A stretch of 64,000 nucleotides of DNA from assembly GCA_046952735.1 (NCBI GenBank), contig JBKUJR010000006.1, forward strand, positions 12,977 to 76,976, given 5' to 3'. Numbering within the stretch: the stretch's first letter is position 1; every line of letters begins with the position of its first letter. Origin of the DNA: Clostridia bacterium (lineage in GTDB: Bacteria > Bacillota > Clostridia > UBA1212 > UBA1255). The notes under the pieces were generated by a model. That model searched no databases and was not told the origin of the DNA. It was given only the letters and a program-made list of their open reading frames with translations. Of this stretch, positions 15,786 through 36,893 are shown piece after piece. A program made the position numbers and the translations under genes.

Positions 15786-15956
15786 ATTTTCACACGAGAG
15801 TTCCGATTATCTATTAAAAAACTTCCGGTTGTAGTGCATAATAAATACAGAACACAACTTCCGATTAGATCGGACCAAAGAAATTAGCTTCTGTCAAGAG
15901 GAAAAATAGGATTTTCTGTTTTCAGAGAAAGATAATTGAGAAATGGAGGAAACTAG

Positions 15957-16178: not shown

Positions 16179-16298
16179 TATTGTTGCCGAAGAGATAAGT
16201 CAGACTTGTTAAGGGATCAAGAAGGACCTGGCAAACATGATTGCGCAAGAATCGCAGTTTTGTTTGTCGGGTCTTTTTTCTGCAAATTTTATTTTAAA

Positions 16299-16316
16299 CC
16301 GGACAGTAGGTGTCCG
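16299..16316. repeat. Palindromic element CCGGACAGTAGGTGTCCG(G), copy 1, preceded by ATTTTAAA
   Basis: Half-sites CCGGACA/TGTCCGG separated by 5 nt. A near-identical second copy is at 18343-18363. Confidence 0.5.
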
Positions 16317-16596
16317 ATTTAACCTGTAGTATAAGCGTGGAAGAGGGTCATAGAATGCAGGGAACAGCCGAGAAACGAAGTGAAATTATGAAAATCCTGT
16401 GCCGGCGCAGGAGCGAAACTGTTCGAAATTTGTCTTTTGAAATCGATGTTTCCGAACTACCATCCGACGGGATATTGAGATTCTGAGTCTTACAGAGCCG
16501 ATATACACCCAATCCGGAAGATACGGCGGCTGAAGATTGAGTTTCTGCCGGAGCTTGAAAAGAACGGATCAGGCAAGATTAAGAAAGGAGGCAATT

Positions 16597-17208: not shown

Positions 17209-18313
17209 AATCGTTAAGCTTAGAGGCGAACAGATGCCTGTCATTGATTATCATAACAGCAACCGTTATTGTGTAATTGCCGCAGAAAAGGATGGAAGCA
17301 AAACATCATACTGTTTTGGTATTCCGGTTTATAACCGAAAAACGAGAAGAATTATCGATTTGTTATTTCATGAAACCGAAGGCAAGTGGAAAGCAGACGG
17401 CTCAACTGCCGTAATAACTGCCGGAAATGAAATTTATTTAGAAAACCCAGACGGCTTTTCTAAAGTTGCTTTGCCTGAAAGGATTTCAGCAGGAGCAGAA
17501 CGTTGTTTGCGATACGGTATGGCGGAGATTCGACCTACGCTTAACGGCGTCTGTGTTCGGGCGGTCTGTACGGCAGATCAGACGTATGAAATTGACCTAA
17601 TAACCGGTCAACCATTTATGAACGTGCGTGCCAATGACCGATGCTTTTCCCTGATGCAGGAGGAACACAGACCGTTTATGACGGTATCCTGCATCGGCGT
17701 CTTGAACGATTTTGGTCAGATAATCGCACCGTGCATTTTTGAATATCAAAGATATCGCGATAATGCGTACACATTAATTTTTCGACAAAGCAGCCCATAC
17801 GGCAGCACTCTTCTGTTTGAAATCAATTTATATGAGGAAAAACTGTTTCAGGACACTACTGTGGAAAGCCTGCATCCCGATCTGAATAATGCATTCGGAG
17901 GTACGGCGTTTATAGGAAACACTGCTGCATACGGTGAACAATGGCTTTATTCACGTCCTGATTTTGCAAAGCTGCCGGAATTGTACGATAAACAGATACG
18001 AAAGGCAATCTTTCATTTACCGAGATTCGGTGGTAACTGTACTTTCTCCGCCTTTGGGCTTTCTGCTCGTTTTTGCAGCTTCGGTTCCAATTGGGATAAC
18101 AAAATTGAAGCGGCAGAAGAACAGGCAATCGCATATACCGACGGTGCATATCAGAGCTTGGATATTACCAGCCTGATTACCGATAATGCCGGATTTTTGA
18201 AGCATACCGAAGGGCTGATCCTCCGTCCGAAGAAGAAAAACGGTGGGTTTGCCGCAGTATCTACCGGGGACAGTTATTTTGCTCCGCAGATTTTGGAAGT
18301 GAATTTTCGCTGA
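17189..18313 (+). CDS. hypothetical protein (374 aa, beta-rich, no recognisable motif), translationally coupled to the CYTH gene
   Basis: Start ATG 17189 overlaps the CYTH stop (17208) and is preceded by AGGAGGTGGAAG. Long uninterrupted ORF. Confidence 0.6.
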   Translation: MKSILNEIVKLRGEQMPVIDYHNSNRYCVIAAEKDGSKTSYCFGIPVYNRKTRRIIDLLFHETEGKWKADGSTAVITAGNEIYLENPDGFSKVALPERISAGAERCLRYGMAEIRPTLNGVCVRAVCTADQTYEIDLITGQPFMNVRANDRCFSLMQEEHRPFMTVSCIGVLNDFGQIIAPCIFEYQRYRDNAYTLIFRQSSPYGSTLLFEINLYEEKLFQDTTVESLHPDLNNAFGGTAFIGNTAAYGEQWLYSRPDFAKLPELYDKQIRKAIFHLPRFGGNCTFSAFGLSARFCSFGSNWDNKIEAAEEQAIAYTDGAYQSLDITSLITDNAGFLKHTEGLILRPKKKNGGFAAVSTGDSYFAPQILEVNFR

Positions 18314-21400: not shown

Positions 21401-24400
21401 GATTGCTCCTTTTGTATTGACCTCTGCAAAGAGTGTCAAGGTACAGATCCTGATTAACGGAAACGGTTCTGTGGATATTGACGCGGCACAGTTGGAAAAC
21501 AACGCTTTTGCCAATGCATACAATATGCTTGAAAACGGTAACTTTGAGCGTGGAACCAACAGCTGGAGCAAAACTGCAGGTGTATCCTATTCGACTAGCA
21601 CACGCTTTAATATGAGCAAATCTCTGTATATGTCCGGCAACCTTACTTCTTCCAGATATGCTTATCAGAAGGTGACGGTTAAGACAAGCCGTTCCACCCG
21701 TGAGACCTTTACACTGTCCGGTTGGGCTAAAGGTTACGGCATTGTGAACCGTGAGCGTGACTTTGCACAGGCTCCGCAGTTCAGGCTGCGTGCAGTAGTG
21801 AAGTATTACGATACAGCCTACAGGGAGTACGGTACTGAAACCTATACCGCCGATTTCTCACCTTGTACCGAGGAATGGCAGCTTGCATCCGTGCAGTTTG
21901 CAAAGGAAAAGTTCCGTACTATTCGGGATATTACCGTATATTGCGATTACAGCTATAACGTCGGCAGCGTATACTTTGATGATATCCAGCTTGTGCGTAA
22001 CAGCATTGAAACCAATCTCTCTGCAAGTGACTTCACGGTGGAAAGCACCGGAGGCACCGATTCTGACGAGACTGTGGAAGACGGAAAGAATACTGCTTCC
22101 GATACAACGCCTGATTTTCAGGAAGCAACAGATGCATTTGGAAATGCTCTGACCGAAACCACTTTTACTGACGGCGAATTCGGTACGATCTACCGTTCTT
22201 TCGGTTTCAATGCTGATAACGGTCAGCTTGCAGGAAATGATGCGGGTAATAACCTGATTCGTGAAACTGATGCAAGAGGAAACGATACCGAATATGCAGT
22301 TGACAGCGTAACCTCTCGCAACGAGGAAGTGATCGACAGATGTGGCAACAAGACTGCCTACGAGTATGACGCATACGGCAGAACTACAAAGGTAACAAGC
22401 TTTAAAGCTCGTCGTGATGAAAACAATAATCCGATCAGAGATAACAACTGTGAGATCGTCTATGATGCGATGGCCGATGTGTCTTACACTTACGACAGCT
22501 TTGACAATATGACCGAGATTGCTCGCGGCGACGGAATGAAGTATGCCCTTGCGTACAATGCTTTCCATAATCTTGAGTCGATCGGTGTAGACGGCAAAGA
22601 TGATAAGCTCGTCAAGTACGACTACAAGAATGGCAACGGCAGACTGAAATCCATCACTTATGCCAACGGTCATGTGATGAAGGCAACATACAATTCGATC
22701 GGTCAGATGGTTGCTGAAAAATGGTTTGCTAATGCATCCGCAACAACAGCCATTGCACACTACAAATATGTTTATGACGGTCAGGGCAACATCGTCCGCT
22801 CCATTGACATTTTACAGAAAAAAGAGTATACTTATTCTTACGAAGACGGCAGAATTATCCGTGCTACAGAGAGTGCAATTAAACTTGATGCAAACGAGAG
22901 CGTTATCGGTAAGACACTTCTTAATTCAATCCTGTATACCTATGATTACGAAGGCAAGCTGACTAAAAAGCGAATCATCCCGGCAAACGGCAGTGAGCGA
23001 GTCATCTACTATGAGAATATGGACGACAATACAGTTGTCAAGTTCACCGCAGGCGGAAAGACAGTAACCTCTCACAGCAAGACTGACAGCTTCGGCAGAA
23101 AGGTCTTCGATGAGCTTCAGCTTGGCACGGGATTTGTGTCAAGGCAGTTCCATTACCATGAGGGCGCGGTTACGCAGGAACACACGGATGCAGGGAAACT
23201 GAAATCCACTGCAACTACTCAGCTTGTGAGCCAGATTGTGCTTTCCGGCGGTCGTACAATTTCTTATGAGTACGATGCGGAAGAACGCATTACCAAGGTA
23301 ACCGACAGCATGGACGGTACAACCCTATACACTTATGATGCGCTTGGGCAGTTGCTTACAGAAACGCACAATGGCGAGCCTGTCAACACTATGGTGTATG
23401 ACAATTACGGTAACATTGTCAGCAAGAACGGCAAGGCGTACACCTACGACAGCACGTGGAAAGATCTGCTTACATCCTACGACGGGCAGTCCATTACCTA
23501 CGATGCACAGGGCAACCCGACAAGCTATCTCGGTCATACGTTGGAATGGGAAAAAGGGCGTCAGCTTAAGAACTTTGACAACAACACATATACCTACAAT
23601 GCAAATGGCATCCGTACATCTAAGACCGTAAACGATGTTAAGCACGAATATGTTCTTGACGGAAGCAAGATTCTTAAAGAGGTATGGAATGAGAATACAC
23701 TTATTCCAATGTACGATAATGAGGAAAGTGTTTGCGGTATCATCTTCAAAAATATACCGTACTATTTCCAGAAAAATCTGCAGGGGGACATTATTGCTAT
23801 CGCAGATAAGAATGCGAAGGTTGTTGCAAAATACTCCTATGATGCTTGGGGCGTTTGTACGGTAATAAGCGATATTTCCGAAACCAATATCGCGGCCGTT
23901 AACCCATACAGATACAGAGGATATTACTATGACTCCGAGATAGGTATGTATTATCTACAATCTAGATATTTCAATCCTATAGTTGGAAGATTTGTTAATG
24001 TGGATGAAACATGCTTTATTCCGTCTGACTTTTCGTTATCTACAAACTTGTGGACTTATTGCTTAAATAATGCAACAAACTATACTGACTCGAAAGGTTT
24101 CTTTGGGACACCGATCCAATGGGCATGTGCTATTATTGGAGGAGTCGCCGGGTGGTTCTTTGGAGATTATGTTGCACGAGGAATCGGACTGTTTCCTGGA
24201 AAATGGTGGCAATGGCAAACCGCTGCTTATTGGGCTGTAAGAGGTTTGGTTGTTGTTGGCGGTGCTGTTTTAGGATATGTTGCTGGAACAGTACTTCTTA
24301 AATTGGCCACCAAGTATTTGCTAATGAATTCATGGGTCGCCTCTCGCATGCCTAAAATCTTGTTGTGGTTTTTGGGTATGGGCGGCGCAGCAGGACAGGT

Positions 24401-24683
24401 TGCAAATGATATGTTTTCAAGATATGCCGGGCATATATTTTCTAATGATCATATTAGAAATGGGATTATGAGGCTAGGGACATCACAAAGAGATATATTC
24501 AATAAGATTTTTAACATAATTAGTTCTAAAATTGGTCAGGCTCAAAACGGAAGTAATCAAATATATGCGACTATCAAGGGAATTAAGGTAACCATTAGGT
24601 TTTACTTCCAAGATGGACAATTTAGAAGTATTAATGCCTTTATTGGATGGGCTAAAGATGTTATAGGAAAACTGTTGAAATAA
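18465..24683 (+). CDS. RHS/YD-repeat polymorphic toxin (2072 aa) with a C-terminal glycine-zipper-rich toxin domain
   Basis: Many YD repeats (YTYDALGQLLTE, YDNYGNIVS, YTYNANGIRTSKT). RHS-associated core PYRYRGYYYDSEIGMYYLQSRYFNPIVGRFVNVDE...NLWTYCLNNATNYTDSKGF. The CT region that follows has GxxxG-rich hydrophobic segments. Confidence 0.9.
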   Translation: MENKNYFAGEMTNAIEQDIVLAPDSVEKESEPEIKDSAISLNTEDIASEDVISKEMEASFEVEETPVKAVRVNEIPELRGENSKVFRMSDGTEQAVFYVEPIHVLNDETQCFEAADTELTEKDNAFVSGKTRFTAEFSKDESNDELFHITDGSHRVTVLVAKIGRQKQDTVAALKKVTADETAAAVDQIADKVTFAKVEADADITYSLTASGVKEDIVVREKADVYRYSFLLRMENVAPEFDEEERRIAFMDLENGEEVFHIPAPFMTDADGNLSSCVSYDVKELDSGEMLLTVTADSEWLNAEERVFPVVIDPQIKVSGTSAMTTYSWVGGRMSSASTHTIGTNGSGDGNCNANRMYMKLTMPTLSLNPRIKKAELKFYQSSGSTQCGGCPKLGLYQVTDSIVTGTCTPVASSDLIDYDTMKTGHCEDGEVISYTFDITKLLDAVNKGETSYANLVLKMLDETSSCNDKIVLYGSSYGGTYAPQLVVTYESSYGVNTSYRTHTHELGRFGQGSIDLACGNLMFESEDFAWASNKMPVILKHLYNSALASYQYTANSTIKLNTANFSAMKLGCGFRLNVMQSMVSASFQHEGTAYTGYVYIGENGEETYFKKSSKTCTCSSNTQCYNLYEDVNGGDMLYDPEKRTLTSGEDIYAFDTSGRLLKVTSGKNSIVITYTSGRISSVTDGAGRIFGFAYNASGFLTSVTAPDGTNILYTYSGNLLSTVTYPNGKKVTISYSSNKPTQIVLLEDGTNVYKVSYTYSGNRVASVTEYGYENGTAVKGASTAYSYSAASRRTIATTTEQKEDGESANNVIKTVYTFDDDGNIVSEYVYSQDIGNIGADGEESGINPHSGDGGAGVVSNINNLLVNHSFETLDNWTSMPCNCGSFFISNYNNDSYAKFGGKTCWMRNHGQERGINGIYQVTNVLPAGNYTFSAYARIDGAFSGCEDSGVFIRVTDTSDNILVESERLVSYDTEYIRLIAPFVLTSAKSVKVQILINGNGSVDIDAAQLENNAFANAYNMLENGNFERGTNSWSKTAGVSYSTSTRFNMSKSLYMSGNLTSSRYAYQKVTVKTSRSTRETFTLSGWAKGYGIVNRERDFAQAPQFRLRAVVKYYDTAYREYGTETYTADFSPCTEEWQLASVQFAKEKFRTIRDITVYCDYSYNVGSVYFDDIQLVRNSIETNLSASDFTVESTGGTDSDETVEDGKNTASDTTPDFQEATDAFGNALTETTFTDGEFGTIYRSFGFNADNGQLAGNDAGNNLIRETDARGNDTEYAVDSVTSRNEEVIDRCGNKTAYEYDAYGRTTKVTSFKARRDENNNPIRDNNCEIVYDAMADVSYTYDSFDNMTEIARGDGMKYALAYNAFHNLESIGVDGKDDKLVKYDYKNGNGRLKSITYANGHVMKATYNSIGQMVAEKWFANASATTAIAHYKYVYDGQGNIVRSIDILQKKEYTYSYEDGRIIRATESAIKLDANESVIGKTLLNSILYTYDYEGKLTKKRIIPANGSERVIYYENMDDNTVVKFTAGGKTVTSHSKTDSFGRKVFDELQLGTGFVSRQFHYHEGAVTQEHTDAGKLKSTATTQLVSQIVLSGGRTISYEYDAEERITKVTDSMDGTTLYTYDALGQLLTETHNGEPVNTMVYDNYGNIVSKNGKAYTYDSTWKDLLTSYDGQSITYDAQGNPTSYLGHTLEWEKGRQLKNFDNNTYTYNANGIRTSKTVNDVKHEYVLDGSKILKEVWNENTLIPMYDNEESVCGIIFKNIPYYFQKNLQGDIIAIADKNAKVVAKYSYDAWGVCTVISDISETNIAAVNPYRYRGYYYDSEIGMYYLQSRYFNPIVGRFVNVDETCFIPSDFSLSTNLWTYCLNNATNYTDSKGFFGTPIQWACAIIGGVAGWFFGDYVARGIGLFPGKWWQWQTAAYWAVRGLVVVGGAVLGYVAGTVLLKLATKYLLMNSWVASRMPKILLWFLGMGGAAGQVANDMFSRYAGHIFSNDHIRNGIMRLGTSQRDIFNKIFNIISSKIGQAQNGSNQIYATIKGIKVTIRFYFQDGQFRSINAFIGWAKDVIGKLLK

Positions 24684-24688
24684 TTATT

Positions 24689-25387
24689 TTGGACATCTAT
24701 AATGGCTACAATAAATTTGTAGCCATTATAGAACCGTATAGGAGGAGAAAAATGTTTCCGTTATCACAATTTGAACTTATTGAAGAATATGATGGTGAAA
24801 AGATACTTTACGAATATCAAAAAGATTTGATATTCGATATCGAATATGAGCCACACAAAATAATTAATTTAGCTTTATTGCAAACTTTGGGTACCATAGG
24901 TAGATATGATGTTGCTATAGAAGTATTAAAATATGGCATTGAAGTCACATCAGATATTCGGGCTTGTGTAATTGGTTTTTATCTTTCTGTAATGTGGAAC
25001 GGGGATTTATCCTGCTTTGAACCCAAACTGGAAGATTCTTACTTTGTGGCCAGCAAAGAGTATCAATCTATTACAAATCTTTTATTTGCAATGAAATATC
25101 GAAATCAACATAATTTTCCTTTGACGAAGAGATATTTGGAAAAATCGATTTTATTGTGCGACCAATATGTTAATAATCATCTCATGTACGCATTTTATTG
25201 TTCTAAAAATGATAGAAAAAAACATTTGGACAGCGCAAGAAACAATCTTGATTATCCTCAACAGAACAAGGAAGATTACACTTCTTTAGAGAAGATCACG
25301 GATCCAGATAATTATATTGGTGAATTTATTACAGGTAACATGATGTGTATAGACACATTTGAGTCAATTGTAAATACAATAAAGTAA
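24689..25387 (+). CDS. putative cognate immunity protein of the RHS toxin
   Basis: Starts 6 nt after the RHS stop. Low-GC, helical 232-aa protein. A paralog (27455-28057) follows the orphan CT. Confidence 0.6.
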   Translation: MDIYNGYNKFVAIIEPYRRRKMFPLSQFELIEEYDGEKILYEYQKDLIFDIEYEPHKIINLALLQTLGTIGRYDVAIEVLKYGIEVTSDIRACVIGFYLSVMWNGDLSCFEPKLEDSYFVASKEYQSITNLLFAMKYRNQHNFPLTKRYLEKSILLCDQYVNNHLMYAFYCSKNDRKKHLDSARNNLDYPQQNKEDYTSLEKITDPDNYIGEFITGNMMCIDTFESIVNTIK

Positions 25388-25485: not shown

Positions 25486-27419
25486 AAGTATGTCTATGAC
25501 GGTTAGGGCAACATCGTCCACTCTATTGACATTTTGCAGAAAAAAGAGTATACTTATACTTATTCTTACAAATTCTTACAAAGACGGCAGAATTATCCGT
25601 GCTGCGGAGACCGATATTACGATTGACGCAAACGAGACCATCACCGGCAAAACGCTTGTTAATTCCATTGTCTACAGCTATGACTCCGACGGCAAGCTGA
25701 CAAAGAAGCGGATTATTCCTGCAAGTGGCAGCGAGCAGGTCATCTACTACGAGAACAGTGACAACAATACCGTTGTGAAGTTCAACGTAGGTGGAAAAAC
25801 GGTAACTTCTCACAGTAAGACTGATAGTTTCGGAAGAAAAGTCTTTGATGAATTACAGCTCGGCACAGGCTTTGTGTCGAGACAGTTCCATTACCATTCA
25901 GGTGAGGTTATGGGTGAGAATAAGGAAAATGCAAAACTGAAATCTTCCCCAACTACGCAGCTCGTGAGCCAGATCGTGCTTTCCGGCGGTTGTACAATTT
26001 CTTATGAGTATGATGCGGAAGAGCGCATTACCAAGGTAACCGACAGCGTGGACGGCATCACCGAATACACATACGATGCACTTGGTCAGTTGTTGACCGA
26101 GAAGCACAATGGCGAAACTGTCAACACGATGGTATATGACAACTACGGTAACATCGTCAGCAAGAACGGCAAGGCGTACACCTATGACAGCACGTGGAAA
26201 GACCTGCTTGTATCCTACGGGCAGTCTATTGCTTACGATGCGCAGGGCAACCCGGCATCTTACCTTGGACATACGCTCACTTGTGAAAAGGGGCGTCAGC
26301 TTAAATCCTTTGACGGTATCCAGTACACCTACAATGCAAATGGTGTCAGAACAAGCAAGACAGTAAACGGAGTTAAACACACTTATACGCTCGACGGTTC
26401 AAAGATTCTTCGTGAGGTATGGGAAAACAACACTTTGATTCCGTTGTACGATAACGAGGATAGCGTATGCGGCATCATCTATAACAACGACCCCTTCTAC
26501 TTCCAGAAGAACCTGCAGGGTGATGTTATCGGTATCGTTGACAAGGATGCTGAGGTTGTTGCGAAATACTCCTATGATGCGTGGGGTGTATGTACTATAA
26601 CAAACGATACTTCGAGCGTTGGTATTGCTACAGTAAACCCGTATCGTTATAGGGGATATTACTATGACTCCGAGATTGATATGTATTATTTGCAGAGCAG
26701 GTATTACAATCCTACCGTCGGTAGATTTATAAGTGAGGATGAAACATGCTTTATTCCGTCTGATTTTTCATTATCTACAAACTTGTAGACTTATTGCTTA
26801 AATAATGCAACAAATTATACTGACTCGAAAGGTTTCTTTGGAACACCGATTCAATGGGCATGTGCTATTATTGGAGGAGTCGCCGGATGGTTCTTTGGAG
26901 ATTATGTTGCGCGAGGAATCGGACTGTTTCCTGGAAAATGGTGGCAATGGCAAAACGCTGCTTATTGGGCTGTAAGAGGCTTGGTTGTTGTCGGGGGGTG
27001 CTGTTTTAGGGTATGTTGCTGGAACAGTACTTCTTAAATTGGCCACCAAGTATTTGCTAATGAATTCATGGGTCGCTTCTCGCATGCCTAAAATCTTGTT
27101 GTGGTTTTTGGGCATGGGCGGTGCATCAGGACAGGTTGCAAATAATCTATATGCAAATTACGAAAGTCATATTTTTTCCAGACAACATATTGCCGATGGA
27201 ATAATGAGATTAGGCTCATCACAAAGGGATATATTTAATAAAATATTCAATGTGCTGAGTTCGAAAATTCAATATGTTGTTAACGGTTCCAATCAAACAC
27301 ATACAACAATAAAAGGGATTAAAGTGACTATTCGATTTTATTTTATGGATGGTCAAATAAAGAGTCTTGATGCTTTTATTGGTTGGGCAGGACGAATTAT
27401 CGGTAAATTGCTGAAGTAA
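25486..27419 (+). pseudogene. orphan RHS C-terminal cassette (duplicate of main RHS 22775-24683 region plus a diverged CT), inactivated
   Basis: About 80% nucleotide identity to the main gene. In-frame stop TAG at 26786-26788 where the main gene has TGG (24051-24053). A +1 G insertion in the G6 run at 26993-26998. Messy 5' junction with a short duplication. Confidence 0.8.
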
Positions 27420-27454: not shown

Positions 27455-28057
27455 TTGGAGGTTGTTATGATGGATTTAAATATGTTCAATCTAATTCAGA
27501 AATCTGAAAATGCAGAAATGTATATGTATCAGCAAAAATTAATAAATAAAATTGATGACAGAAATGGCGAGAATGCAATTAAATTGGCATTACTTTTAAC
27601 ACTTGCTCCGATAGGAGATTATACAGAAGCATTAAAGATTTTATTGTTTTTTTCTGAACTTTTTTCAAATGTAAAATTAGAAATTATAAAGTATTATTTT
27701 TTGTTACAATGGGGAACGGGCATTGATCTTGAACAAATAAAGGTGTTACTCTCGACGAAAAATTATGACAGTGAAACAGAATCACTATTTTACTATTTGA
27801 TGGCTTTGCAATTAGAGCGATTCGGAAATAAAAAAGAAGCGGCAGAAAAAATTGCATTGTCAGTAGAGAAATGTTCTGATCATGTAAATAATATCTTAAT
27901 GTATGTTAAATATTTCAAAAAAGAAGAAGCTTTATATTTGCGGAAAGCAAAAAGTAATTTGAAAATTATTGATTGCTTGGGTGTGGATTCATATGTTAAT
28001 CCAAATATGTTTATAGGAGAACATATTAGCGGAATATATAAATTGAAAATTGATTAA
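27455..28057 (+). CDS. orphan immunity protein (paralog of 24689-25387)
   Basis: Shared motifs: LALLLTLAPIGDY vs LALLQTLGTIGRY; CSDHVNNILMYVKYF vs CDQYVNNHLMYAFYC; FIGEHISG vs YIGEFITG. Confidence 0.6.
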   Translation: MEVVMMDLNMFNLIQKSENAEMYMYQQKLINKIDDRNGENAIKLALLLTLAPIGDYTEALKILLFFSELFSNVKLEIIKYYFLLQWGTGIDLEQIKVLLSTKNYDSETESLFYYLMALQLERFGNKKEAAEKIALSVEKCSDHVNNILMYVKYFKKEEALYLRKAKSNLKIIDCLGVDSYVNPNMFIGEHISGIYKLKID

Positions 28058-28067
28058 TCAGATCAAA

Positions 28068-28415
28068 GAATGGCAAGGCATATACCTATGACAGCACATG
28101 ACGTGATCTTCTTACTTCATATGACAGTCAGTCCATTACTTACGATGCACAGGGCAATCCGACAAGCTATCTCGGTTATACTCTGACATGGGAAAAAGGA
28201 AGACAGCTTAAGTCCTTTGACGGCATCACCTATACTTACAACGCAAACGGTATCCGTACATCCAAAACGGTTGGTGGTGTTAAGCACGAATATGTTCTTG
28301 ACGGAAGCAAGATTCTCAAAGAAGCTTGGGACGGTAATACCCTCGTTCCTCTGTACGATAACGAGGATAGCGTATGTGGTATCATCTACAATAACGAACC
28401 GTACTATTTCCAAAG
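28068..28415 (+). pseudogene. third RHS fragment (homologous to main RHS about 23440-23770), truncated at the junction with the intron remnant
   Basis: Translates to ...TYDAQGNPTSYLGYTLTWEKGRQLKSFDGITYTYNANGIRTSKTV...DNEDSVCGIIYNNEPYYFQ. Homology ends abruptly at 28413-28415. Confidence 0.7.
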
Positions 28416-28520
28416 TAAAGCTTGCCGCAAGAAGTCAGCAGAAGCCATAGTACCTGATTATTCAGGGAAGGGCTGAACAATCGTAAGTTTCGAGTAAAGG
28501 CCGGAAGGAGGTCTGGAGCG

Positions 28521-29668
28521 ATGAAAGCAGAAAACCGAAAGGGCTGCCCGCAAAGGGAAAGCGTGGAACGCGAAGAGTATGCGGGAGTGCAAAGCACCAG
28601 ACGTCGGGAAGGCGTGGAAAGGAACGGTGTGTCAGACCTGCTGGAAAGGATTCTGGACAGAAACAATCTGAACAGAGCCTACAAGCGGGTCAAATGCAAT
28701 CACGGAGCGCCAGGAATGCAATCGCACAGCAGCTAAGGCAAATCTATGAACTGATCTTTTCAGACGGCAGCTATGGTTATCGTCCGGGGAGAAGTGCACA
28801 GCAGGCTATTCAAAAGGGGAAGGAGTATGCACAGCAAGGGTATACCCATGCTGTGTCAGTAGACTTGCCCAAATATTTCGATACCCTCAATCATGAACTG
28901 CTAATGAATCTTATGCGCAAAGAAATCTAAGACAAGCGAGTCATAGACTTGATTAAGAAGTATCTCAAAAGCGGCGTCATGGAAAATGGCCTTGTCATCA
29001 GGACACAAGAAGGAGCGCCGCAAGGCGGGCCGTTATCACCGTTACTGACGAATATCTACCTGAACGAATTTGACAGGGAAATGGAACGCCGTGGCGTTCG
29101 GTTTATCCGGTATGCGGATGATATTGTTGTGCTGGCAAAGAGCAAGCGAGCTGCCGGACGATTGCTGGAATCATGCCGAAGATACCTCGAGGGGAAATTG
29201 AAACTCAAAGTCAACACTGAAAAGAGTAAAGCAGTCAGCGTTCTGGCTATTAGCACTTCAAATTTCTTGGCTTTTGTTTGGGTAAGAATGGCAGCGGTAT
29301 CCTATATCCGCGCACATAGGAAATCCTTGGCAAAAGCCAAGCGAAAGCTCAAAAAGCTGACTCGCCGCAACCAGGGCTGCAATGTCCGCAAAGTCATGGA
29401 AAACGTTAAAATCTTTATCCGTGGCTGGATTGACTGCTTCTATGTGGCTGATATGAAGCGAATACTGCAAAGCTGGAACGAATGGCTGCGAAGAAGATTC
29501 AGCATGTACATCTGGAAACAATGGAAGAAGCCTAAAACCCGCATTCAAAACCTGTGCATACTGGGGATTTCACACTTACAGGCTTACCAGTGGGGCAATT
29601 CCAGATTGGGTTACTGGCGCGTTGCCGGCAGTCAAATCTTAGCGTGTTCCATTATCGATGTTATTTAA
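28521..29668 (+). mobile_element. group II intron remnant: RT/maturase (IEP) split across three frames, 5' ribozyme domains missing
   Basis: RT domain 0 LLERILDRNNLNRAYKRVKCNHGAPG; RT domains in 28694-28930; YADD motif (RFIRYADDIVVLA); maturase/X domain (IRGWIDCFYVAD...). Only about 100 bp separate the RHS fragment from the IEP start, and no GUGYG 5' end is present. Confidence 0.75.
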
Positions 29669-30146
29669 GTGGCCATGGTGTTTGGAAGTGTTCATTTGAT
29701 TGTTATATGATTTGTATTGAAGACGCAGTCAAAATTGAAAAGTCATTTATTGAAAAATGCTTTACTCATATAAAAATTTTAATTTTTATAGCCAGGAAAT
29801 TCAATTAAAGGAAACAAACGAAGTAATTGGACGAATTCGCGGTCGGGATCCTGACGATAGTGTAAGTCAAGTAGAAATTGTTTAAATTTCTCAAAATGCA
29901 GCTTTTCTCTATACTATGAAACAAAATTTTGCCCTTCAAGCTATGATTTGAACAGGAAATTTTTTTATTATGTGTTTTAACGACTGAAAATTAAAAAGTA
30001 CCACATAATTTTCTGTATTTTTAACAAAGCTATAATAAATTTATGCTGCATCTTTTTCAAAATAAAGCCAAGTGACACAGTAATAGTTACAATTCACGTC
30101 CGATAAAATCTGACGGTTTATATAAAGTAACATTAACGAAAAAATA

Positions 30147-30174
30147 TTGACAATAAATAAAAAAGTGGTAAAAT
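30147..30174 (+). promoter_or_regulatory. strong sigma-70-type promoter upstream of the cas operon: -35 TTGACA (30147-30152), extended -10 TGgTAAAAT (30166-30174)
   Basis: Near-consensus hexamers with a 16-nt spacer in an AT-rich (about 27% GC) 600-bp leader. Confidence 0.45.
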
Positions 30175-30281
30175 TTAAATAAATAATTTATAAGGAAAAT
30201 TCATAATATTGAATTTAATCTATAAATCCGGCAAGAATATTATTTTTTATAATAACAAAGAAACGAAAGGAGGAGAGTATT

Positions 30282-30950
30282 TTGGTAAAGCCATATCCCC
30301 TTGAGATGGAGATATCAGGCAACACAGCGATGTGGACACGACCGGATACGGGCGATTGTCCGGTGAGTTATCCAGCCCCCACGTATTCTGCAGTCAAAGC
30401 GATATTCGAGTCTGTTTTGTGGGGGCCGGATATAGAGATTATCCCGACTAAAGTGGAATTGTGCAAACCCGTGCAATATCATACCTATTGTACAAATTAC
30501 GGTGGGCCGCTGCGGAGCACATCTGCAATCAAACAAGGAAATAGTTATCAGCTATACGCCACGGTGTTGATCGATGTCTGCTACAAGCTATACGCGCAAG
30601 TTGTGCCAAATCACAACAAAAAAGACCAGCCACCCACGGCTTTACAATGGGACATGAAAACCACTTCTCCCGGACACGCTTACCAAAGCATTTTTCAGCG
30701 TCGTTTGAAACGCGGCCAGTCTTTTTCTACGATTTCGCTTGGCTGGAGTGAGTTTACCCCCAACTACTTTGGCGAGCTTCGTGATACGACAAAGCTGCTG
30801 GATAATTTGCCTGATATCATCATCCCCTCCATGCTTAGACAAGTATTTTCTAAAGGCTATAACTCTCCGGTTTCCTACACCTATGACAATAATTTAGTGA
30901 TACAGAATGGGACGCTGGAATATCCAAAACGAGGCGTAGATTATGATTAA
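30282..30950 (+). CDS. cas5: Cas5 (type I-C Cas5c/Cas5d-like)
   Basis: 222 aa. YPAPTYSAVKAIFESVLWGPDIEIIPTKVELCKPVQY matches the Cas5d pattern Y.vPTpSAvrGileAI.WkP.i...v.rI.vl.PI, and QLYATVLIDVCYKLYAQV matches RATLALRDVAYVIEAHF. TTG start with AAAGGAGGAG RBS. Confidence 0.7.
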   Translation: MVKPYPLEMEISGNTAMWTRPDTGDCPVSYPAPTYSAVKAIFESVLWGPDIEIIPTKVELCKPVQYHTYCTNYGGPLRSTSAIKQGNSYQLYATVLIDVCYKLYAQVVPNHNKKDQPPTALQWDMKTTSPGHAYQSIFQRRLKRGQSFSTISLGWSEFTPNYFGELRDTTKLLDNLPDIIIPSMLRQVFSKGYNSPVSYTYDNNLVIQNGTLEYPKRGVDYD

Positions 30951-33027
30951 TGAACTGCACGATTTGGCAAAAACACTGGAAAACAAGGGAATCTCACCAA
31001 AAGAGTGGCATAGGGAATATAAAGCAATTCCGAAGGTTACAGAAAAATCTCCTTGTATTAGAATCTGGCTTGACTGCGATGGCGCAATTTGCGGGCTGGA
31101 GGGCCTGTCCGCGGAGCAGGCAAGCCAATTACGAAAATACGGGAACAACCAGAATAGTTTTCCAGCATTCAATATTAGCCCGCTATACCGGCTGACTGAT
31201 TTGGACAGTATTGATGAACTTAAAAGAATCGAAAACGGACAAGGCAAACCTGATATAGAAACAATTAAGTCATGGTGCAAAGAAAACAACTGGATTAAAG
31301 GAGCTCCGAAGCAAATACAAAGAAATTTAGAGGATTGTCCTCAAAGACTTTTGGAAACAATCGGGACACAGGCGCAAATGAACGATACTATTATTTTAGA
31401 ATTAGTTTCATTGTGCAAAAAACTCTGTGAAAATATTGACGGCGGATTTCGAGCCTCCCTTGAAAATTGTATTTTTACAAAATTGCAAAAAGGAGAAGAT
31501 GTGAAACTTGCCCTTGCCTTGCTGTTTCATAAAGGCTCCGCCGAGAAGGAACACAGCAAGGATGCGGGAAACAAATTATCTGTTATTCTGGATGTATGGG
31601 AGTGGAGTCGGTATGAATATCCCGTAGCCAATGAATACACTACGCTTCAACTCAATGAAATGTTGTTGGCAAATAGCGCCAATGTAGAGATACTGGCGGA
31701 TAACACCCAGTTGGACGCTTTTGGCTCTCCTTTTGTGAATCCAAACGAACCGATGCCTAGTGTAAAACTCAGTGGATTTGAAGTTACTCTGCGTTCCATG
31801 TTTAACGGCCAGCCGTGTCAGTACCGTTATGGCCAGATTGACGACGGATCCTATCCGATAACGGCAGAAAACCGTTCGTCGATTAAGAAATCGCTGGAGT
31901 GGATAACGCATCCATCGCGCAGACATGTAACCTGGGAGAAGGTTGATAAAAACGAGGTGGCGTTCGTATATCCCTCCAGATTACCTGAGGTGTTCCCGCA
32001 TTTTGCATCTGTTTTTAAGAATGATCCGAGTAAAAGCCCCAAAAGAACAGAGGCCCGGTTTGAAAATGTCGCTAAAGAGTTTGCTAAATCCTTTCGCGGG
32101 CTCCCTGTCGACCAAAAGCCGGATAACCTGCAGATATTTACAATCCGAAAGTTGGATAAGGCGCGTTCAAAGATCCTCTTCACACATAATACAACGCCAG
32201 AACAACTCATCCAAGCGGCAGACGATTGGTCGCTTGGGTGCCATAATATTCCCGAACTGGAGATGGACGAGGGAAACTCCCCGTTTCCTCTTGAGGTAGG
32301 GTCTATTGTAAATGGTGTTTGGAAACAAAACGGCGAACGGGCGGATGGAAAAACATCCGTCAAATGCATGAAATATTATCAGGGTGTAGAGCTGCTTTTG
32401 AACATCCTGCCACAGGGCGCAGTATATAACTTTTTACATATTACACTTGAACATTCATCCGGTTTAATCAATTATCTAGGCAATTTGCTTCACAGAGGCA
32501 GAAAAGACGGGAGCAGCACCGAGATAAAACGCTTAGAAATCCAAAAAAATGCGGCAGCTCAAATTCTTTCGGTTCTTGGACTGCTACTCTATAAAAGCGA
32601 CATAAGAAAGGAGAAGTATATGGAAGGCCTGGCTTATCTGATCGGTCAACTGTTGCATGTGTCCGATGAGCTCCATACGCTGTACTGCAAGATCAAAAGA
32701 AATGGAGATATCCCGCCGCAGCTGGCAGGCAGCGCTCTGTTTACGACTGCTGGCGATATGCCATTTCAGGCATTGTCACAGCTATCGACAAGACTGAATC
32801 CATACATATCATGGGCAAAACAGTATCAATTTAAAGATATCGAGAAACAAGGCGAGGAAAGCTGGCGTGCAAGATGGCTTTTAGGACTTTTGAGACAGCT
32901 ATCCAACGAAATCCATTTGCAAATGGACAAGTCTATTCGTTTTAACGACTACGACAAAGCCCAGCTTTTTATCGGTTATATGGCATCACTGCAGAAAGAA
33001 GGGCAGCTGCTCAAAACAAAATCGTAG
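30943..33027 (+). CDS. cas8c: Cas8c-like large subunit (assigned by position; 694 aa)
   Basis: Start overlaps the cas5 stop (ATGATTAA). Sits between cas5 and cas7 as Cas8c does in type I-C. No sequence motif that I can verify from memory. Confidence 0.5.
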   Translation: MINELHDLAKTLENKGISPKEWHREYKAIPKVTEKSPCIRIWLDCDGAICGLEGLSAEQASQLRKYGNNQNSFPAFNISPLYRLTDLDSIDELKRIENGQGKPDIETIKSWCKENNWIKGAPKQIQRNLEDCPQRLLETIGTQAQMNDTIILELVSLCKKLCENIDGGFRASLENCIFTKLQKGEDVKLALALLFHKGSAEKEHSKDAGNKLSVILDVWEWSRYEYPVANEYTTLQLNEMLLANSANVEILADNTQLDAFGSPFVNPNEPMPSVKLSGFEVTLRSMFNGQPCQYRYGQIDDGSYPITAENRSSIKKSLEWITHPSRRHVTWEKVDKNEVAFVYPSRLPEVFPHFASVFKNDPSKSPKRTEARFENVAKEFAKSFRGLPVDQKPDNLQIFTIRKLDKARSKILFTHNTTPEQLIQAADDWSLGCHNIPELEMDEGNSPFPLEVGSIVNGVWKQNGERADGKTSVKCMKYYQGVELLLNILPQGAVYNFLHITLEHSSGLINYLGNLLHRGRKDGSSTEIKRLEIQKNAAAQILSVLGLLLYKSDIRKEKYMEGLAYLIGQLLHVSDELHTLYCKIKRNGDIPPQLAGSALFTTAGDMPFQALSQLSTRLNPYISWAKQYQFKDIEKQGEESWRARWLLGLLRQLSNEIHLQMDKSIRFNDYDKAQLFIGYMASLQKEGQLLKTKS

Positions 33028-33033
33028 GAGGTA

Positions 33034-33924
33034 ATGAAAATGAGTAACGAAATCAAGCGAGCAACCGGTCTTTTGGTTGTTGAAGTAGTCAATTCAAATG
33101 CCAACGGAGATCCGGACAGAGAATCTGATCCGCGTCAGAGACCCAATGGAATTGGTGAAATATCACCGGTATCCTTCAAGCGGAAACTTCGTGATTTGCT
33201 GGAGGATCACGATAGCCTTTTCTTCAAAAGCCTGCCTAAAACCTATATCGAAAGCGCGGACAATTACTGGATTTTGGAGTCACGCGGCCGCGATAGGAAA
33301 TCCATTCAAAAGGAAATGGGAAAAGATATCAAGTCTTTCGATCAAAAAGAATTTTTAGAAAGCACATTTGTCAAGAAATACTGGGACGCTAGAGTCTTTG
33401 GCAATACATTTCTCGAAGAAGGCGCGAACAAGGGCTTCATTAAGACTGGCGTTGTCCAATTCGGCGTAGGCACTTCTATCTCTCCTGTTGAGATCATACG
33501 GCATACGAATACGAATAAGGCAGGCGTTCAGGAGGGAAAAAATGCGGGGATGGCTCCACTGGCATTTCGAATTGTTGCACATGGTGTCTACTGCATTCCA
33601 TTTTTTGTAAATCCAAACTTCGCCGGAAATACTGGTTGCACAGCAGAAGACATCGAATTGCTGAAAATTCTAATCCCCAGAGCATATGAACTGAATCGTT
33701 CTGCAATTCGCTCTGATATTCGTATTCGGCATGCTTGGTATATTGAGCACCGCAATGCGCTGGGAAGCTGCCCGGATTATATGCTTTTTGAGGCGTTGAC
33801 TCCTACACGTAAAGAACAGTCTGGCGATCCTTCTATAAGCTGGGCGGATTATGACGACAAAACCGCTTTGCCGGATAATCTGATCGACAAAGTTGCTTCA
33901 GTCGTTGATTTAATGCAGATATGA
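33034..33924 (+). CDS. cas7: Cas7 (Csd2/DevR family, type I-C/I-B-like)
   Basis: TGLLVVEVVNSNANGDPDRESDPRQRP matches sGLL.ieV.naNPNGDPD..N.PR. YWDARVFGNTF...GVVQFGVGTSISPVEI matches DVRlFGaVm...GPvQl..a.SidPi. Confidence 0.75.
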   Translation: MKMSNEIKRATGLLVVEVVNSNANGDPDRESDPRQRPNGIGEISPVSFKRKLRDLLEDHDSLFFKSLPKTYIESADNYWILESRGRDRKSIQKEMGKDIKSFDQKEFLESTFVKKYWDARVFGNTFLEEGANKGFIKTGVVQFGVGTSISPVEIIRHTNTNKAGVQEGKNAGMAPLAFRIVAHGVYCIPFFVNPNFAGNTGCTAEDIELLKILIPRAYELNRSAIRSDIRIRHAWYIEHRNALGSCPDYMLFEALTPTRKEQSGDPSISWADYDDKTALPDNLIDKVASVVDLMQI

Positions 33925-36113
33925 CTTATTTAGCACATAGCTCAAAAGATGGAATTGAAGCCCAAACTTATGCTGATCATGTACGCGGCGTAAGGTCTTT
34001 AGCGAGTCAATATGCATTGGAAACAGGGCATTATTCCAAGTATGATCGGGTAGTTTTGCAACAGGTAACAGAAGAAGCTGCGGAGTATCATGACATTGGT
34101 AAGCTGAATTTGGAAAATCAGAAGGTGCTTTCCGGTGAAGTAACCGCTAAGGTTTTGCCGGTAAATCATGTGGATGCCGGTGCTGCCTATTGGCTGAAAG
34201 ACCAGCGCTCTTCAGTTATCCCCGCTATATTAACACAGGCTCATCATGTTGGATTTCCTGACTTTTCAGCAGAGATGAATAGAGAAGAACTTGCTTTTCG
34301 TGACGCACAGATTGCTGACCTTGTGGATCAGGAGCTTAAAGAACTGGAGGCAATCCACAACAGCCTCATTGGACAGCGATCCCGTACAGCAATGGGGGAA
34401 GGCGTTACGGGAGACTGCAGTGTATTCCTGCGAATGGCTCTGTCATGTATTGCTGACGCTGATCATACTGATACGGCAAGACATTACAGAAAATATCCGC
34501 AAATGGATGAACATATTCCTTTGAAAGCTGGAGAACGACTCGCTAGGCTGGATGAATGCGTGACTGATTTACAACGTAACAATGCTGCTACCGAGAGAAA
34601 TGCGTTGCGAAGCGAGATGTATCAGTCTTGCCGGAATGCTGACATAAAATCTAATATTAGTTCCTGCGACAGTCCCGTGGGATCAGGAAAAACAACCGCA
34701 GTAATGGCGCATTTGCTTGCACAGGCACAAAAGCGAGGCTTACGGCGAATTTTTGTCGTGCTGCCATTTACGAACATTATCCGGCAGTCGGTAAAGACCT
34801 ATCGGACGATGTTAACCCTGCCGGGGGAGAATCCGGAGGAAGTGGTAGCTGAGCTGCATCATCGAGCCGATTTTGAAAACGAGGATGTTCGTTATCTCAC
34901 ATCGCTTTGGCGTGCACCTATTATCGTTACCACTGCTGTTGCCTTTTTTGAAACGCTTGCTTCAAATTCTACTGGTACTCTGCGACGGCTGCATGAACTG
35001 CCTGGAAGCGCAATTTTTGTCGATGAATCACACGCTGCACTGCCAGTTAATCTTTTGCCCGTCGCATGGAAGTGGATGAGGATCCTGTCCGACGAATGGT
35101 CCTGCTACTGGATTCTGGCATCAGGATCCATCAGCCGGTTCTGGACAATTCGGGAGATTGCAGGAAACAATGCTCCTCCCGACATTTCTGAAATTGTAGA
35201 CCCTACTGTGCGCAGTAAACTATCATCTTATGAGCATCACAGAATCACGTACCGATACAATCTTTCACCACAATTTACGGAAGGGCTTGCTGAATGGATC
35301 GCCTCTTTTTCCGGACCGCGGCTTGTCATTTTAAATACGGTTCAGAGTGCAGCTGTTTTAGCTGATCATTTTGCTCAAAAGTATGGAAGGGAAAAGGTGG
35401 AGCACCTGTCGACTTCCCTTACTCCGATTGACAGAGAGTCCACACTAGATTGGGTGAAATTCAGACTGGCTGATCCGAAGGATACGGATTGGACGTTGGT
35501 CGCTACTTCCTGTATGGAAGCAGGCGTTGATTTTTCCTTCAGGATCGGATTTCGTGAACTTTGCTCGTTGTCCTCTTTGCTGCAGGCGGGAGGAAGAATC
35601 AACCGAGAAGGCAGCAATAACAAGGCCGAAATATGGACGTTCTGCATTGCAGAAGATGGCATGTTGAAACGGAATCCCGCTCTAAAACAGGCCGGTATAG
35701 TCCTTAAAGACTATTTGGAAAAGAACATACCCATCTCGCCTCAGCTAACGACAGAATCTATTAGAAAAGAAATAGCACTCTATGGATTGAACCCTATGCA
35801 CCAAAAACTTATGGAATTTGAGGATTTGCAGAACTTCCCACAGGTAGAGTGCAATTTTAAGGTTATCAACTCTGATACCAGACTGGCCGTTGTCGATACC
35901 GATATTGTCAAGCGGTTGCAAGCTGGTAAAGTCAATTGGCGTGAACTACAAAAAGTTTCTATCCAAATTGCGAAATACAAACTTGACGAGTTGAAAATAC
36001 CAAATATCGTGGATGAGATATATCATTGGAATTTGGAATACGACCACTTTCTCGGATATATGGCTGGAATTGTAAAGCTAAAAAAACTCAGTGGGCAGGT
36101 ACTGATTATTTAG
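33921..36113 (+). CDS. cas3: Cas3 (HD nuclease + SF2 helicase)
   Basis: N-terminal HD domain (AHS...YADHV, YHDIGK, DADHTDTA). Helicase motif I SPVGSGKTTA, motif II VDESHA (DExH), motif VI QAGGRINREG. ATG overlaps the cas7 stop (ATGA). Confidence 0.85.
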   Translation: MTYLAHSSKDGIEAQTYADHVRGVRSLASQYALETGHYSKYDRVVLQQVTEEAAEYHDIGKLNLENQKVLSGEVTAKVLPVNHVDAGAAYWLKDQRSSVIPAILTQAHHVGFPDFSAEMNREELAFRDAQIADLVDQELKELEAIHNSLIGQRSRTAMGEGVTGDCSVFLRMALSCIADADHTDTARHYRKYPQMDEHIPLKAGERLARLDECVTDLQRNNAATERNALRSEMYQSCRNADIKSNISSCDSPVGSGKTTAVMAHLLAQAQKRGLRRIFVVLPFTNIIRQSVKTYRTMLTLPGENPEEVVAELHHRADFENEDVRYLTSLWRAPIIVTTAVAFFETLASNSTGTLRRLHELPGSAIFVDESHAALPVNLLPVAWKWMRILSDEWSCYWILASGSISRFWTIREIAGNNAPPDISEIVDPTVRSKLSSYEHHRITYRYNLSPQFTEGLAEWIASFSGPRLVILNTVQSAAVLADHFAQKYGREKVEHLSTSLTPIDRESTLDWVKFRLADPKDTDWTLVATSCMEAGVDFSFRIGFRELCSLSSLLQAGGRINREGSNNKAEIWTFCIAEDGMLKRNPALKQAGIVLKDYLEKNIPISPQLTTESIRKEIALYGLNPMHQKLMEFEDLQNFPQVECNFKVINSDTRLAVVDTDIVKRLQAGKVNWRELQKVSIQIAKYKLDELKIPNIVDEIYHWNLEYDHFLGYMAGIVKLKKLSGQVLII

Positions 36114-36188
36114 AGTACGTTTTGGACAGCATTAAGAAAATTTTGATCACTATTTCTCTAAAATGAATTAGCGCCTTTTTCACAACTT

Positions 36189-36470
36189 TTGCAGAGCAGG
36201 TATTACATTTGTCAAAACACCCCAGTCGTGAGGGGGCTATGCGCCGGACGGTATCTATTTTGTCAACGCTTCCTGGAAGATTTTGCTTTGCTGGTTCCAG
36301 CGATGGTAAATGGAGCGTTTGCATGTGAACTATTTCTTAAATCATTATTAAACGTCTCTCTTAGAGGACATAGACTTTATAGTGATTTATTTTGCAAATT
36401 AGAATTGTCTACTGCACAAGAGATTGAAACAGTTGTCATCGAGAGCTTCAAAAGAAAAAAGCATGTTTAG
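36189..36470 (+). CDS. hypothetical small protein (93 aa) downstream of cas3
   Basis: ORF only, between the cas3 stop and the terminator hairpin. Uncertain. Confidence 0.2.
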   Translation: MQSRYYICQNTPVVRGLCAGRYLFCQRFLEDFALLVPAMVNGAFACELFLKSLLNVSLRGHRLYSDLFCKLELSTAQEIETVVIESFKRKKHV

Positions 36471-36507
36471 CGTTTGGCTTCTTTTTTGTAACAGGAACAC
36501 AGTGTAG

Positions 36508-36553
36508 AAACCTGTCGAAAAAGCTGTAATTGCTTTATCGGCAGGTTTTTGTT
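36508..36553 (+). terminator. rho-independent terminator downstream of the cas operon
   Basis: AAACCTGTCGA ... TCGGCAGGTTT stem (1 mismatch) followed by TTTTTGTTG. Confidence 0.45.
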
Positions 36554-36605
36554 GTAATATGATGCAAACGAACAATATTTATATTTGGTAAGGGAAGATT
36601 CGTTA

Positions 36606-36893
36606 TGAGAAAATGGTGTACAGAGGATTGGGAATTTGAGCTAACTGCTACAGATGGGAAAGCCGGACATTGTAGGCTTGGTTTAGAAAAAGGCGATAAG
36701 GATGATACAAGTATATACATGGTGCGAAGTCATTCGATGCGGCGGCGATTTTACATACAGGGGCAACAAAGAAAAATATGAAATGGACATACCATGTGCT
36801 GACCACTGTATTCGTTTTCATCTTAAAGCATATCCCATAAATCGGGATGAAAATGGAATCCCCCTTCCTAACAGGGAAAGGCCGAAAGATTAG
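36606..36893 (+). pseudogene. small Cys-rich protein gene (TIGR04076-like?), frameshifted
   Basis: MRKWCTEDWEFELTATDGKAGHCRLGLEKGD... continues in the +1 frame as ...CEVIRCGGDFTYRGNKEKYEMDIPCADHCIRFHLKAY. The family assignment is from memory only. Confidence 0.3.

Follow-up and report, generated by a model that had tools for sequence, protein, structure and literature searches.

The stretch of DNA analysed here (the window) covers 64,000 nucleotides (64 kb) of contig JBKUJR010000006.1 from a Clostridia bacterium (assembly GCA_046952735.1). It carries four closely packed open reading frames (ORFs) on the plus strand, encoding proteins of 222, 694, 296 and 730 aa, that specify a type I-C Cascade and its nuclease Cas3, components of a CRISPR system (named after clustered, regularly interspaced repeats that are short and palindromic). 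It is probable, in our judgement, that these genes form a functional interference-only I-C module that relies on I-C arrays elsewhere in the genome and whose self-repression circuit has been lost. The apparently odd architecture of the locus is the standard layout of a catalogued but poorly annotated I-C sub-branch. The gene family and its I-C assignment are already contained in CRISPR classification profiles, and both interference-only loci and CreR-type regulators are described classes. What is new is a CreR-type element upstream of cas5, for which the comparative evidence is clean and which adds an I-C lineage to those with this class of regulation.

An earlier inspection of the window, made from its sequence and ORF translations without database searches (the sequence-only reading), had described four coupled genes with overlaps at 30943 and 33921 as a type I-C-like module of Cascade and Cas3, and had suggested a search with profile hidden Markov models. 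The same ORFs and overlaps were recovered (ATGATTAA at 30943 and ATGA at 33921), the ribosome-binding sites of the cassette are intact, and the profile search was run: all four proteins are Cas homologs according to their profile and PDB matches, and I-C-type Cas5, Cas8, Cas7 and Cas3 were all found. Cas5 matched the PADLOC Cas5c profile (E=3.6e-24) and TIGR01876 (E=1.4e-18; at 67.8 bits, under the equivalog cut-off of 85), and its best solved relative is the I-C Cas5 of N. lactamica (PDB 8G9T_N, E=1.8e-11). The operon is devoid of cas6, and Cas5c is predicted to be the subunit that processes CRISPR RNA (crRNA) precursors, of the type that replaces Cas6. Cas7 was identified by Pfam Cas_Cas7 PF05107 (E=7e-54), by TIGR02589 (E=1.5e-38; 132.8 bits, under the cut-off of 182) and by the I-C Cas7 of D. 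vulgaris (PDB 7KHA_B, E=2.3e-20). Cas3 matched PADLOC Cas3c (E=1.5e-101) and the I-C Cas3 of PDB 8G9U_P (E=3.6e-34), and combines on a single chain the HD domain (TIGR01596) and the helicase core (TIGR01587). When 56 ORFs of the window were scanned with PADLOC, Cas families were matched only by these four genes, among the matches listed (25 of 127 families).

The large subunit had resisted assignment to any known Cas8 in the sequence-only reading; it is a divergent Cas8c, by profile and by fold. The 694-aa protein matched the PADLOC Cas8c profile PDLC01562 from end to end (E=3.3e-226). No sequence match to it was found in Pfam or NCBIfam, and the Cas8c profile retrieved nothing at E<=1 from the PDB sequences. 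An AlphaFold model built from 24 homologs was of moderate quality (predicted local distance difference test, pLDDT, 63; predicted template modelling score, pTM, 0.42). In a Foldseek search with this model, significant matches (E<=0.001) were obtained only for chains of I-C Cascade, 8DEJ_I, 8DEX_I and 8G9S_K; these top three fold matches are 409-535 residues long, and from these lengths we take them to be Cas8c. The family contains hundreds of members of this size, mostly annotated as 'hypothetical'. Canonical Cas8c has ~600 aa, compared to ~700 aa in the branch of the window.

A Cas11-like C-terminal domain, proposed earlier as something to look for in the large subunit, is predicted by several features. 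The internal ATG at 32620 would give rise, by internal translation, to a 135-aa Cas11c starting at Met560 of Cas8c. This methionine is invariant among 24 diverse homologs; the ribosome-binding site AAAGGAG precedes it with a 6-nt spacing that is kept across divergent loci, and nucleotide-level conservation of the segment agaaaggagaagtatATG upstream of the Met560 codon extends even to loci with 35-38% Cas8 identity. The C-terminus of Cas8c is helical in the model. The conserved ribosome-binding site and Met560 fit the internally translated Cas11c known for I-C systems, as reported in two studies (10.1101/2020.04.18.045682, PMC7684278).

Gene order and repeated loss in the I-C sub-branch

A genome scan for the Cas8c family provided a comparison set of 53 loci, hosted mainly by Clostridia and Peptococcaceae, with stray metagenome-assembled genomes (MAGs) of other phyla. 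The order cas5-cas8-cas7-cas3 was found in 53/53 loci, as far as the sequence of each locus suffices. The gene order that had been taken for a rearrangement is therefore the fixed order of an I-C sub-branch. Nor does cas3 stand in the place of cas4-cas1-cas2, as had been thought: in complete relatives, cas4-cas1-cas2 come after cas3 and are followed by an I-C array. In Phosphitispora sp. TUW77 (locus L007), for instance, the genes after cas3 are cas4 (223 aa), cas1 (343 aa) and cas2, beyond which lies an array of 70 repeats. The three adaptation genes are present in 25 loci and an array in 27 relatives. The arrays consist of textbook I-C repeats of 32-33 nt (GTCGC-stem-loop-stem-GCGTGGATTGAAAT), with the clade form GTCGC…GTGGATTGAAAT.

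We counted the states of the loci with at least 3 kb of sequence downstream of cas3, a locus being called stripped when neither adaptation genes nor an array lay within up to 10 kb. Both were present in ~23 loci, an array without adaptation genes in 4 (L004, L038, L041 and L046), and neither in ~17 including the window (~40% of the relatives with enough flank). The architecture judged unusual in the sequence-only reading is thus shared by ~17 of 44 loci with adequate flank, and it has arisen repeatedly by loss. This conclusion is drawn from two observations. In a neighbour-joining tree of Cas7 and Cas3, the stripped loci are scattered among complete ones. In addition, the locus of Hungatella hathewayi DSM 13479 (L049) retains after cas3 a truncated cas4, a truncated cas1 and a 4-repeat array (15750-17877), an adaptation module that appears to be caught in mid-decay, and in its sister L025 the adaptation module and array are all gone while the crRNA-like regulator described below is kept. 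As ~40% of the loci of the branch are interference-only yet constrained, they offer a test set for effectors that rely on arrays or adaptation genes located elsewhere.

The window belongs to a subclade of nine members (L017, L001, L002, L004, L054-L057 and the window), none of which has adaptation genes. One of them, L004, carries a 34-repeat array upstream of cas5, which shows that the effector lineage of the window still uses arrays without adjacent adaptation genes. The closest relatives, L054-L057, stand at 84% nucleotide identity and have the same bare cassette, flanked by unrelated neighbours: MurT with a flavin reductase, an ABC transporter with a resolvase, or a methyltransferase island. 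Members of the family also occur in a Candidatus Methanocorpusculum faecipullorum MAG (L023), a Phycisphaerales MAG (L010), Petrotoga (L003) and Leptolinea (L017); these members, in MAGs assigned to an archaeon or to distant bacterial phyla, could be due to horizontal transfer or to mis-binned contigs. The Cas8c family had no match in the viral contigs of IMG/VR or the plasmids of PLSDB, and carriage of the family by phages or plasmids was rejected for now on these grounds.

Within the 64 kb of the window, the sequence-only reading had seen neither an array nor adaptation genes, and every search agreed. No CRISPR array was detected with Tandem Repeats Finder, a direct-repeat search or Rfam, and the 3' end of the clade repeat, GTGGATTGAAAT, had 9 matches at <=2 mismatches compared to 9.46 expected, which is the chance level. 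The Cas4, Cas1 and Cas2 of the clade gave no tblastn match at E<=1e-3 anywhere in the window, and the matches listed from the PADLOC scan of ORFs likewise included none of these families. A permissive tblastn search (E<=10) for relics of these genes around the operon returned only noise; the best match (E 0.03 over 42 residues) falls inside the group II intron region.

With the canonical I-C systems of D. vulgaris, Bacillus halodurans and N. lactamica (PDB 7KHA, 8DEX, 8G9S/8G9U) the module shares Cas5c, Cas7c and Cas3 as sequence homologs, a Cas8c alike by fold, the absence of cas6 and the internal Cas11c start, and its relatives share the 32-nt repeat GTCGC...ATTGAAAT and the protospacer-adjacent motif (PAM) TTC. 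It differs in that cas3 stands after cas7, whereas the canonical order is cas3-cas5-cas8c-cas7-cas4-cas1-cas2, in that no similarity of its Cas8c to the solved Cas8c chains was detectable by sequence, and in that cas4-cas1-cas2 and an array are missing from the 64 kb. The I-C sub-branch defined by PDLC01562 (PADLOC/Makarova), with members also in Desulfosporosinus, Desulfitobacterium and Hungatella, agrees with the window in its four proteins, in their order and overlaps, and in the full-length Cas8c match; its complete members such as L007 have cas4-cas1-cas2 and arrays of up to 70 repeats after cas3, and the window does not. An adaptation-less I-C cluster, cas3cas5cas8cas7, has been described in Vibrio anguillarum PF7, where it adjoins a complete I-C locus (PMC6360697). 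That cluster is likewise an interference-only I-C set without cas4-cas1-cas2, but it has the canonical order and an adjoining complete partner, whereas no partner was seen in the 64 kb of the window.

A CreR-type element upstream of cas5

When the leaders of the window and of L054-L057 were aligned, a conserved block became apparent. Its minus strand shows a short hairpin and then GTGGATTGTAAT, which differs at one position from the 3' handle of the repeat. A solitary minus-strand handle, often an exact 12-mer, is present 120-280 nt upstream of cas5 in ~20 loci, both array-bearing and array-less. Among the array-less loci, the handle was matched exactly 11 times, each time by the single copy upstream of cas5, and the remaining matches with one mismatch are about as frequent as expected by chance. 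In ~20 loci, the seed of the adjoining pseudo-spacer matches over 10-16 nt a second site, which lies between the element and cas5 and has a TTC flank in 15 loci and a TTT flank in 3. Pseudo-spacer and target are mismatched at positions 6 and 12, where Cascade flips the bases out. The pseudo-spacers vary from locus to locus, each co-varying with its own target, and when random start points were taken in the same regions, a seed of at least 10 was obtained in 4 of 1,880 trials. In L056, the target overlaps the -10 and transcription-start region of the cas promoter. The element of this locus is predicted to have a divergent promoter of its own (TTGTCA-17-TG-TATACT), the palindromic -35 being shared, and a strong terminator hairpin at its end (z=-9.5). 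The element of the relatives thus has the layout of a CreR-type crRNA-like RNA, and a role as repressor is predicted for it.

The CreR class of crRNA-like RNAs has been described previously (10.1101/2023.03.10.532045, 10.1101/2023.03.03.530964, 10.1101/2024.10.29.618823); CreR-type self-repression of effector operons is experimental for I-B, I-E, I-F1 and V-A, and has been noted for I-C. With the CreR mini-arrays (Ming Li lab; Shmakov et al. 2023), the relatives of the window share a degenerate repeat close to the cas promoter and a seed-only, PAM-flanked match to the promoter in which positions 6 and 12 are free. They differ from them in having one recognisable pseudo-repeat, with a terminator hairpin in place of the second repeat, and in the location of the element, which is upstream of cas5 rather than cas8 and divergently oriented; in addition, the copy in the window is defective. 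In L025, L032 and L049, the terminator hairpin of the crRNA-like RNA starts with GTCGC, like the 5' end of the true repeat. This resemblance suggests an origin of the terminator from the second repeat of an ancestral mini-array. In two loci of the Desulfosporosinus group (L006 and L009), a solitary repeat that is complete, GTCGCTCCCTACATGGGAGCGTGGATTGAAAA, is found in the orientation of cas5 (+) and ~176 nt upstream of this gene, and in L009 a TTC-flanked 11-nt seed match lies 75 nt further upstream; this repeat may represent a second, differently oriented form of the regulator.

The copy of the regulator in the window is decayed. Its pseudo-repeat is made of the hairpin GTCAGATTTTATCGGAC (30098-30114) and the handle GTGAATTGTAAC (30086-30097) on the minus strand, the handle carrying a G-to-A change; the 3' end of the clade repeat is GTGGATTGAAAT. 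This handle is the sole match with <=1 mismatch in the 64 kb to the degenerate pattern GTGGATTG[A/T]AA[T/C]. That it is one of the chance hits (9 compared to 9.5 expected) was considered and rejected, given its homology to the intact elements of the relatives. The pseudo-spacer has a 5-nt deletion in its seed relative to L056. The terminator hairpin is gone, the element having no stable fold (z=+1.4, compared to -9.5 in L056), and no matching minus-strand promoter was called for the crRNA-like RNA. The best PAM-flanked seed match of the pseudo-spacer is 5, the background level, whereas those of the relatives reach 10-16, and no target was found in the 64 kb in other registers or on either strand.

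The near-consensus extended -10 promoter noticed by the sequence-only reading is indeed present in the leader (Table 1). Its -35 sits in the palindrome ATTGACAAT, which in the relatives is also used by the crRNA-like RNA's own divergent promoter, and TATTGACAA is invariant in the leader alignment. At the 5' end of the leader, a conserved block folds in the relatives into two terminator-like hairpins, one terminator being called in L056 at 8958-8993, and probably insulates the cassette from upstream transcription. The block of the window is partly degenerate and no terminator was called in it. A toxin or RNA gene was considered for this block (29886-29992) and dropped, as it folds as terminator hairpins in the relatives.

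Constraint on the module and probable source of its guides

Selection on the four genes was assessed from the ratio of nonsynonymous to synonymous substitution rates (dN/dS), estimated pairwise by the Nei-Gojobori method for the window paired with each of L055, L056 and L057, and for the pairs within that trio. The ratio was 0.07-0.19 for cas5, 0.20-0.30 for cas8, 0.10-0.14 for cas7 and 0.17-0.22 for cas3, at dS values of 0.36-0.68. All four genes, cas3 included, are therefore under purifying selection among array-less relatives. The window deviates in 2 of the 434 columns that are at least 97% conserved in the family, which is no worse than array-bearing relatives; no deviation was found in the 74 conserved columns of Cas5 or in the 165 of Cas3.

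Combined, purifying selection that includes cas3, the intact motifs, the Cas11c start, the array of L004 and the published adaptation-less I-C cluster argue for a module loaded in trans. The suggestion of the sequence-only reading that the module borrows crRNAs from a distant array is the best reading, and we regard it as rather likely to be correct. The normal layout of the sub-branch is cas5-cas8-cas7-cas3-cas4-cas1-cas2-CRISPR, from which the lineage of the window has lost the adaptation genes and the adjacent array. Cascade would be composed of Cas5c, Cas8c, internally translated Cas11c and Cas7c, with Cas3 as its partner. Cas5c would cut crRNAs from an I-C array elsewhere in the genome, leaving in the loaded crRNA an 11-nt 5' handle (...AUUGAAAU). 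The complex would then recognise TTC-flanked targets and recruit Cas3, which would degrade them; spacer acquisition, if any, would also be supplied from elsewhere in the genome. In the relatives, the divergent crRNA-like RNA (pseudo-repeat, pseudo-spacer and terminator) upstream of cas5 would guide Cascade to the partly matching TTC-PAM site on the -10 and transcription start or the 5' untranslated region (UTR), and the operon would thereby repress itself. With the regulator decayed, the strong promoter of the window is probably no longer self-repressed. What we infer from these comparisons is that the module is active, that it uses an array in trans and that its promoter is de-repressed.

Several points weigh against this interpretation. 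The search for an array or a second I-C system of this genome covered the 64 kb of the window, so that the source of the guides is putative. A rough three-taxon estimate made by hand gave, for the branch leading to the window, a dN/dS of ~0.28 for cas5 and ~0.38 for cas8, compared to 0.07-0.25 in the sisters, and dN/dS at the level of a lineage is no proof of present-day function. The regulator of the window has accumulated four independent lesions (the handle mutation, the seed deletion, the loss of the terminator and a weak promoter), which could be an early sign of relaxed selection on the whole locus. A rival reading is a decaying remnant, in which the four genes would have fallen out of use after deletion of cas4-cas1-cas2 and the array, and would not yet have been disrupted. 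The 64 kb without an array, adaptation genes or relics, the decayed linked regulator, the other degraded elements of the island (the split reverse transcriptase of the group II intron and the orphan RHS tips) and the adaptation module seen decaying in L049 would all be expected of such a remnant. We nevertheless consider it unlikely: all four ORFs are full length with 2/434 conserved columns deviating, no more than in array-bearing relatives, the strong promoter is intact, as are the ribosome-binding sites, and dN/dS values of 0.10-0.30 over the array-less subclade at dS of 0.4-0.6 point to long persistence under constraint.

Purifying selection on the genes would equally be expected if Cascade and Cas3 formed a non-immune, self-regulating and horizontally moving unit, acting as a regulator or as a selfish or standby cassette. 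The sharp boundaries of the cassette, with other neighbours in each genome, and the finding that the only local guide in array-less relatives is the crRNA-like RNA (11/11 exact handles) are consistent with such a unit. Yet the predicted target of this crRNA-like RNA is the cas promoter only, which indicates no function past self-control. The conservation of cas3 equals that of the Cascade genes, which favours degradation of DNA over binding alone; the guide of the window is defective and without a target, and the family was absent from the plasmid (PLSDB) and viral-contig (IMG/VR) searches. We find this explanation distinctly improbable. The same low probability is given to the array-less cassettes, each with a single crRNA-like RNA, being self-contained, horizontally spreading units outside classical adaptive immunity, possibly standby effectors that capture guides from other I-C or invader-borne arrays, or else regulatory or selfish elements. 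If this were true, the window would represent a lineage that escaped from self-repression. It is more doubtful still, to the point of being very improbable, that the element belongs to a CreTA-like addiction module, in which the crRNA-like RNA would be an antitoxin (CreA) that represses a small toxin gene and thereby forces retention of Cascade. The element does have the layout common to CreA and CreR, and such elements have been described as able to safeguard cas genes. But its predicted targets lie in the cas promoter or the 5' UTR, as for CreR, and no toxin candidate turned up, though no search aimed at toxins was made. An addiction module would moreover protect the Cascade genes and not cas3, which is equally constrained, and in the window the element is dead while the genes are intact.

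Extent of the cassette and its genomic neighbourhood

The coordinates of the cassette and its leader are given in Table 1. Beyond the 3' boundary, the genes differ among all relatives. The sequence-only reading had placed the module at 30147-36553. The first of these positions is the start of the promoter and not of a gene, and the last lies 440 nt beyond the stop codon of cas3, so that this span takes in an unrelated 93-aa ORF outside the conserved cassette. Its estimate of ~27% guanine plus cytosine (GC) for the leader holds (26.8%). The ~40% proposed for the operon does not: the operon has 44.9% GC, compared to 46.3% for the whole window and 48.5-49% for the outer flanks, a small contrast.

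Table 1. Features of the cas cassette and its leader in the window (positions from the first nucleotide of the window).
Feature	Position	Strand	Basis or remark
Conserved 5' block of the cassette leader	29886..29992	+	blastn, 72-73% identity to L054, L055 and L057
Pseudo-spacer, TATTACTGTGTCAC...	30052..30085	-	Leader alignment
Decayed pseudo-repeat, CreR-type	30086..30114	-	Homologs: GTGGATTGTAAT elements in L054-L057
cas operon promoter, TTGACA, 16 nt, TG-TAAAAT	30147..30174	+	11/12 consensus positions matched, extended -10
cas5c (Cas5d-type, 222 aa)	30282..30950	+	TTG start 7 bases past the ribosome-binding site AAAGGAGG
cas8c (divergent large subunit, 694 aa)	30943..33027	+	PADLOC PDLC01562, full length
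Predicted internal cas11c (135 aa from M560), inside the 3' part of cas8c	32620..33027	+	Conserved ribosome-binding site and ATG
cas7c (Csd2-type backbone subunit, 296 aa)	33034..33924	+	Pfam, TIGR02589, PDB
cas3 (730 aa; fusion of HD nuclease and superfamily 2 helicase)	33921..36113	+	PADLOC, TIGR, PDB
Cassette 3' boundary	36126..36129	no strand	blastn homology to L054-L057 stops here

A tRNA gene at 11827-11908 is followed by a stretch of ~26 kb with lower GC (12000-37700; 42.5% compared to 48.5-49% in the flanks) that contains defence and competition genes together with the cas cassette, and looks like a tRNA-adjacent genomic island. Near its start, an AAA_14/DUF4143 ATPase (12637-13935, +) matches the PADLOC candidate defence family PDC-S01 over its full length (E=3e-106). 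The RHS cassettes and the group II intron remnant that the sequence-only reading had placed next to the operon are both there. An RHS protein of 2072 aa, with an Ntox35 toxin domain at its C-terminus, is encoded at 18465-24683 (+), and downstream of it lie an orphan RHS fragment (25490-26788, +) and an orphan Ntox35 tip (26985-27419, +), the layout typical of a spare toxin cassette. The small ORFs that follow each tip (24689-25387 and 27455-28057) had no family match and may be immunity genes. The group II intron (28412-29668, +), with Rfam D1-D4 at 28412-28473, directly adjoins the cas leader at the 5' edge of the latter. The intron is degraded, as its reverse transcriptase/maturase is broken up into at least three reading frames. 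On the other side of the cassette and outside its conserved part, the 93-aa ORF (36189-36470, +) had no family match, and two overlapping small ORFs (36605-36781 and 36702-36893, +) resemble a single Cys/His-rich gene with a frameshift.

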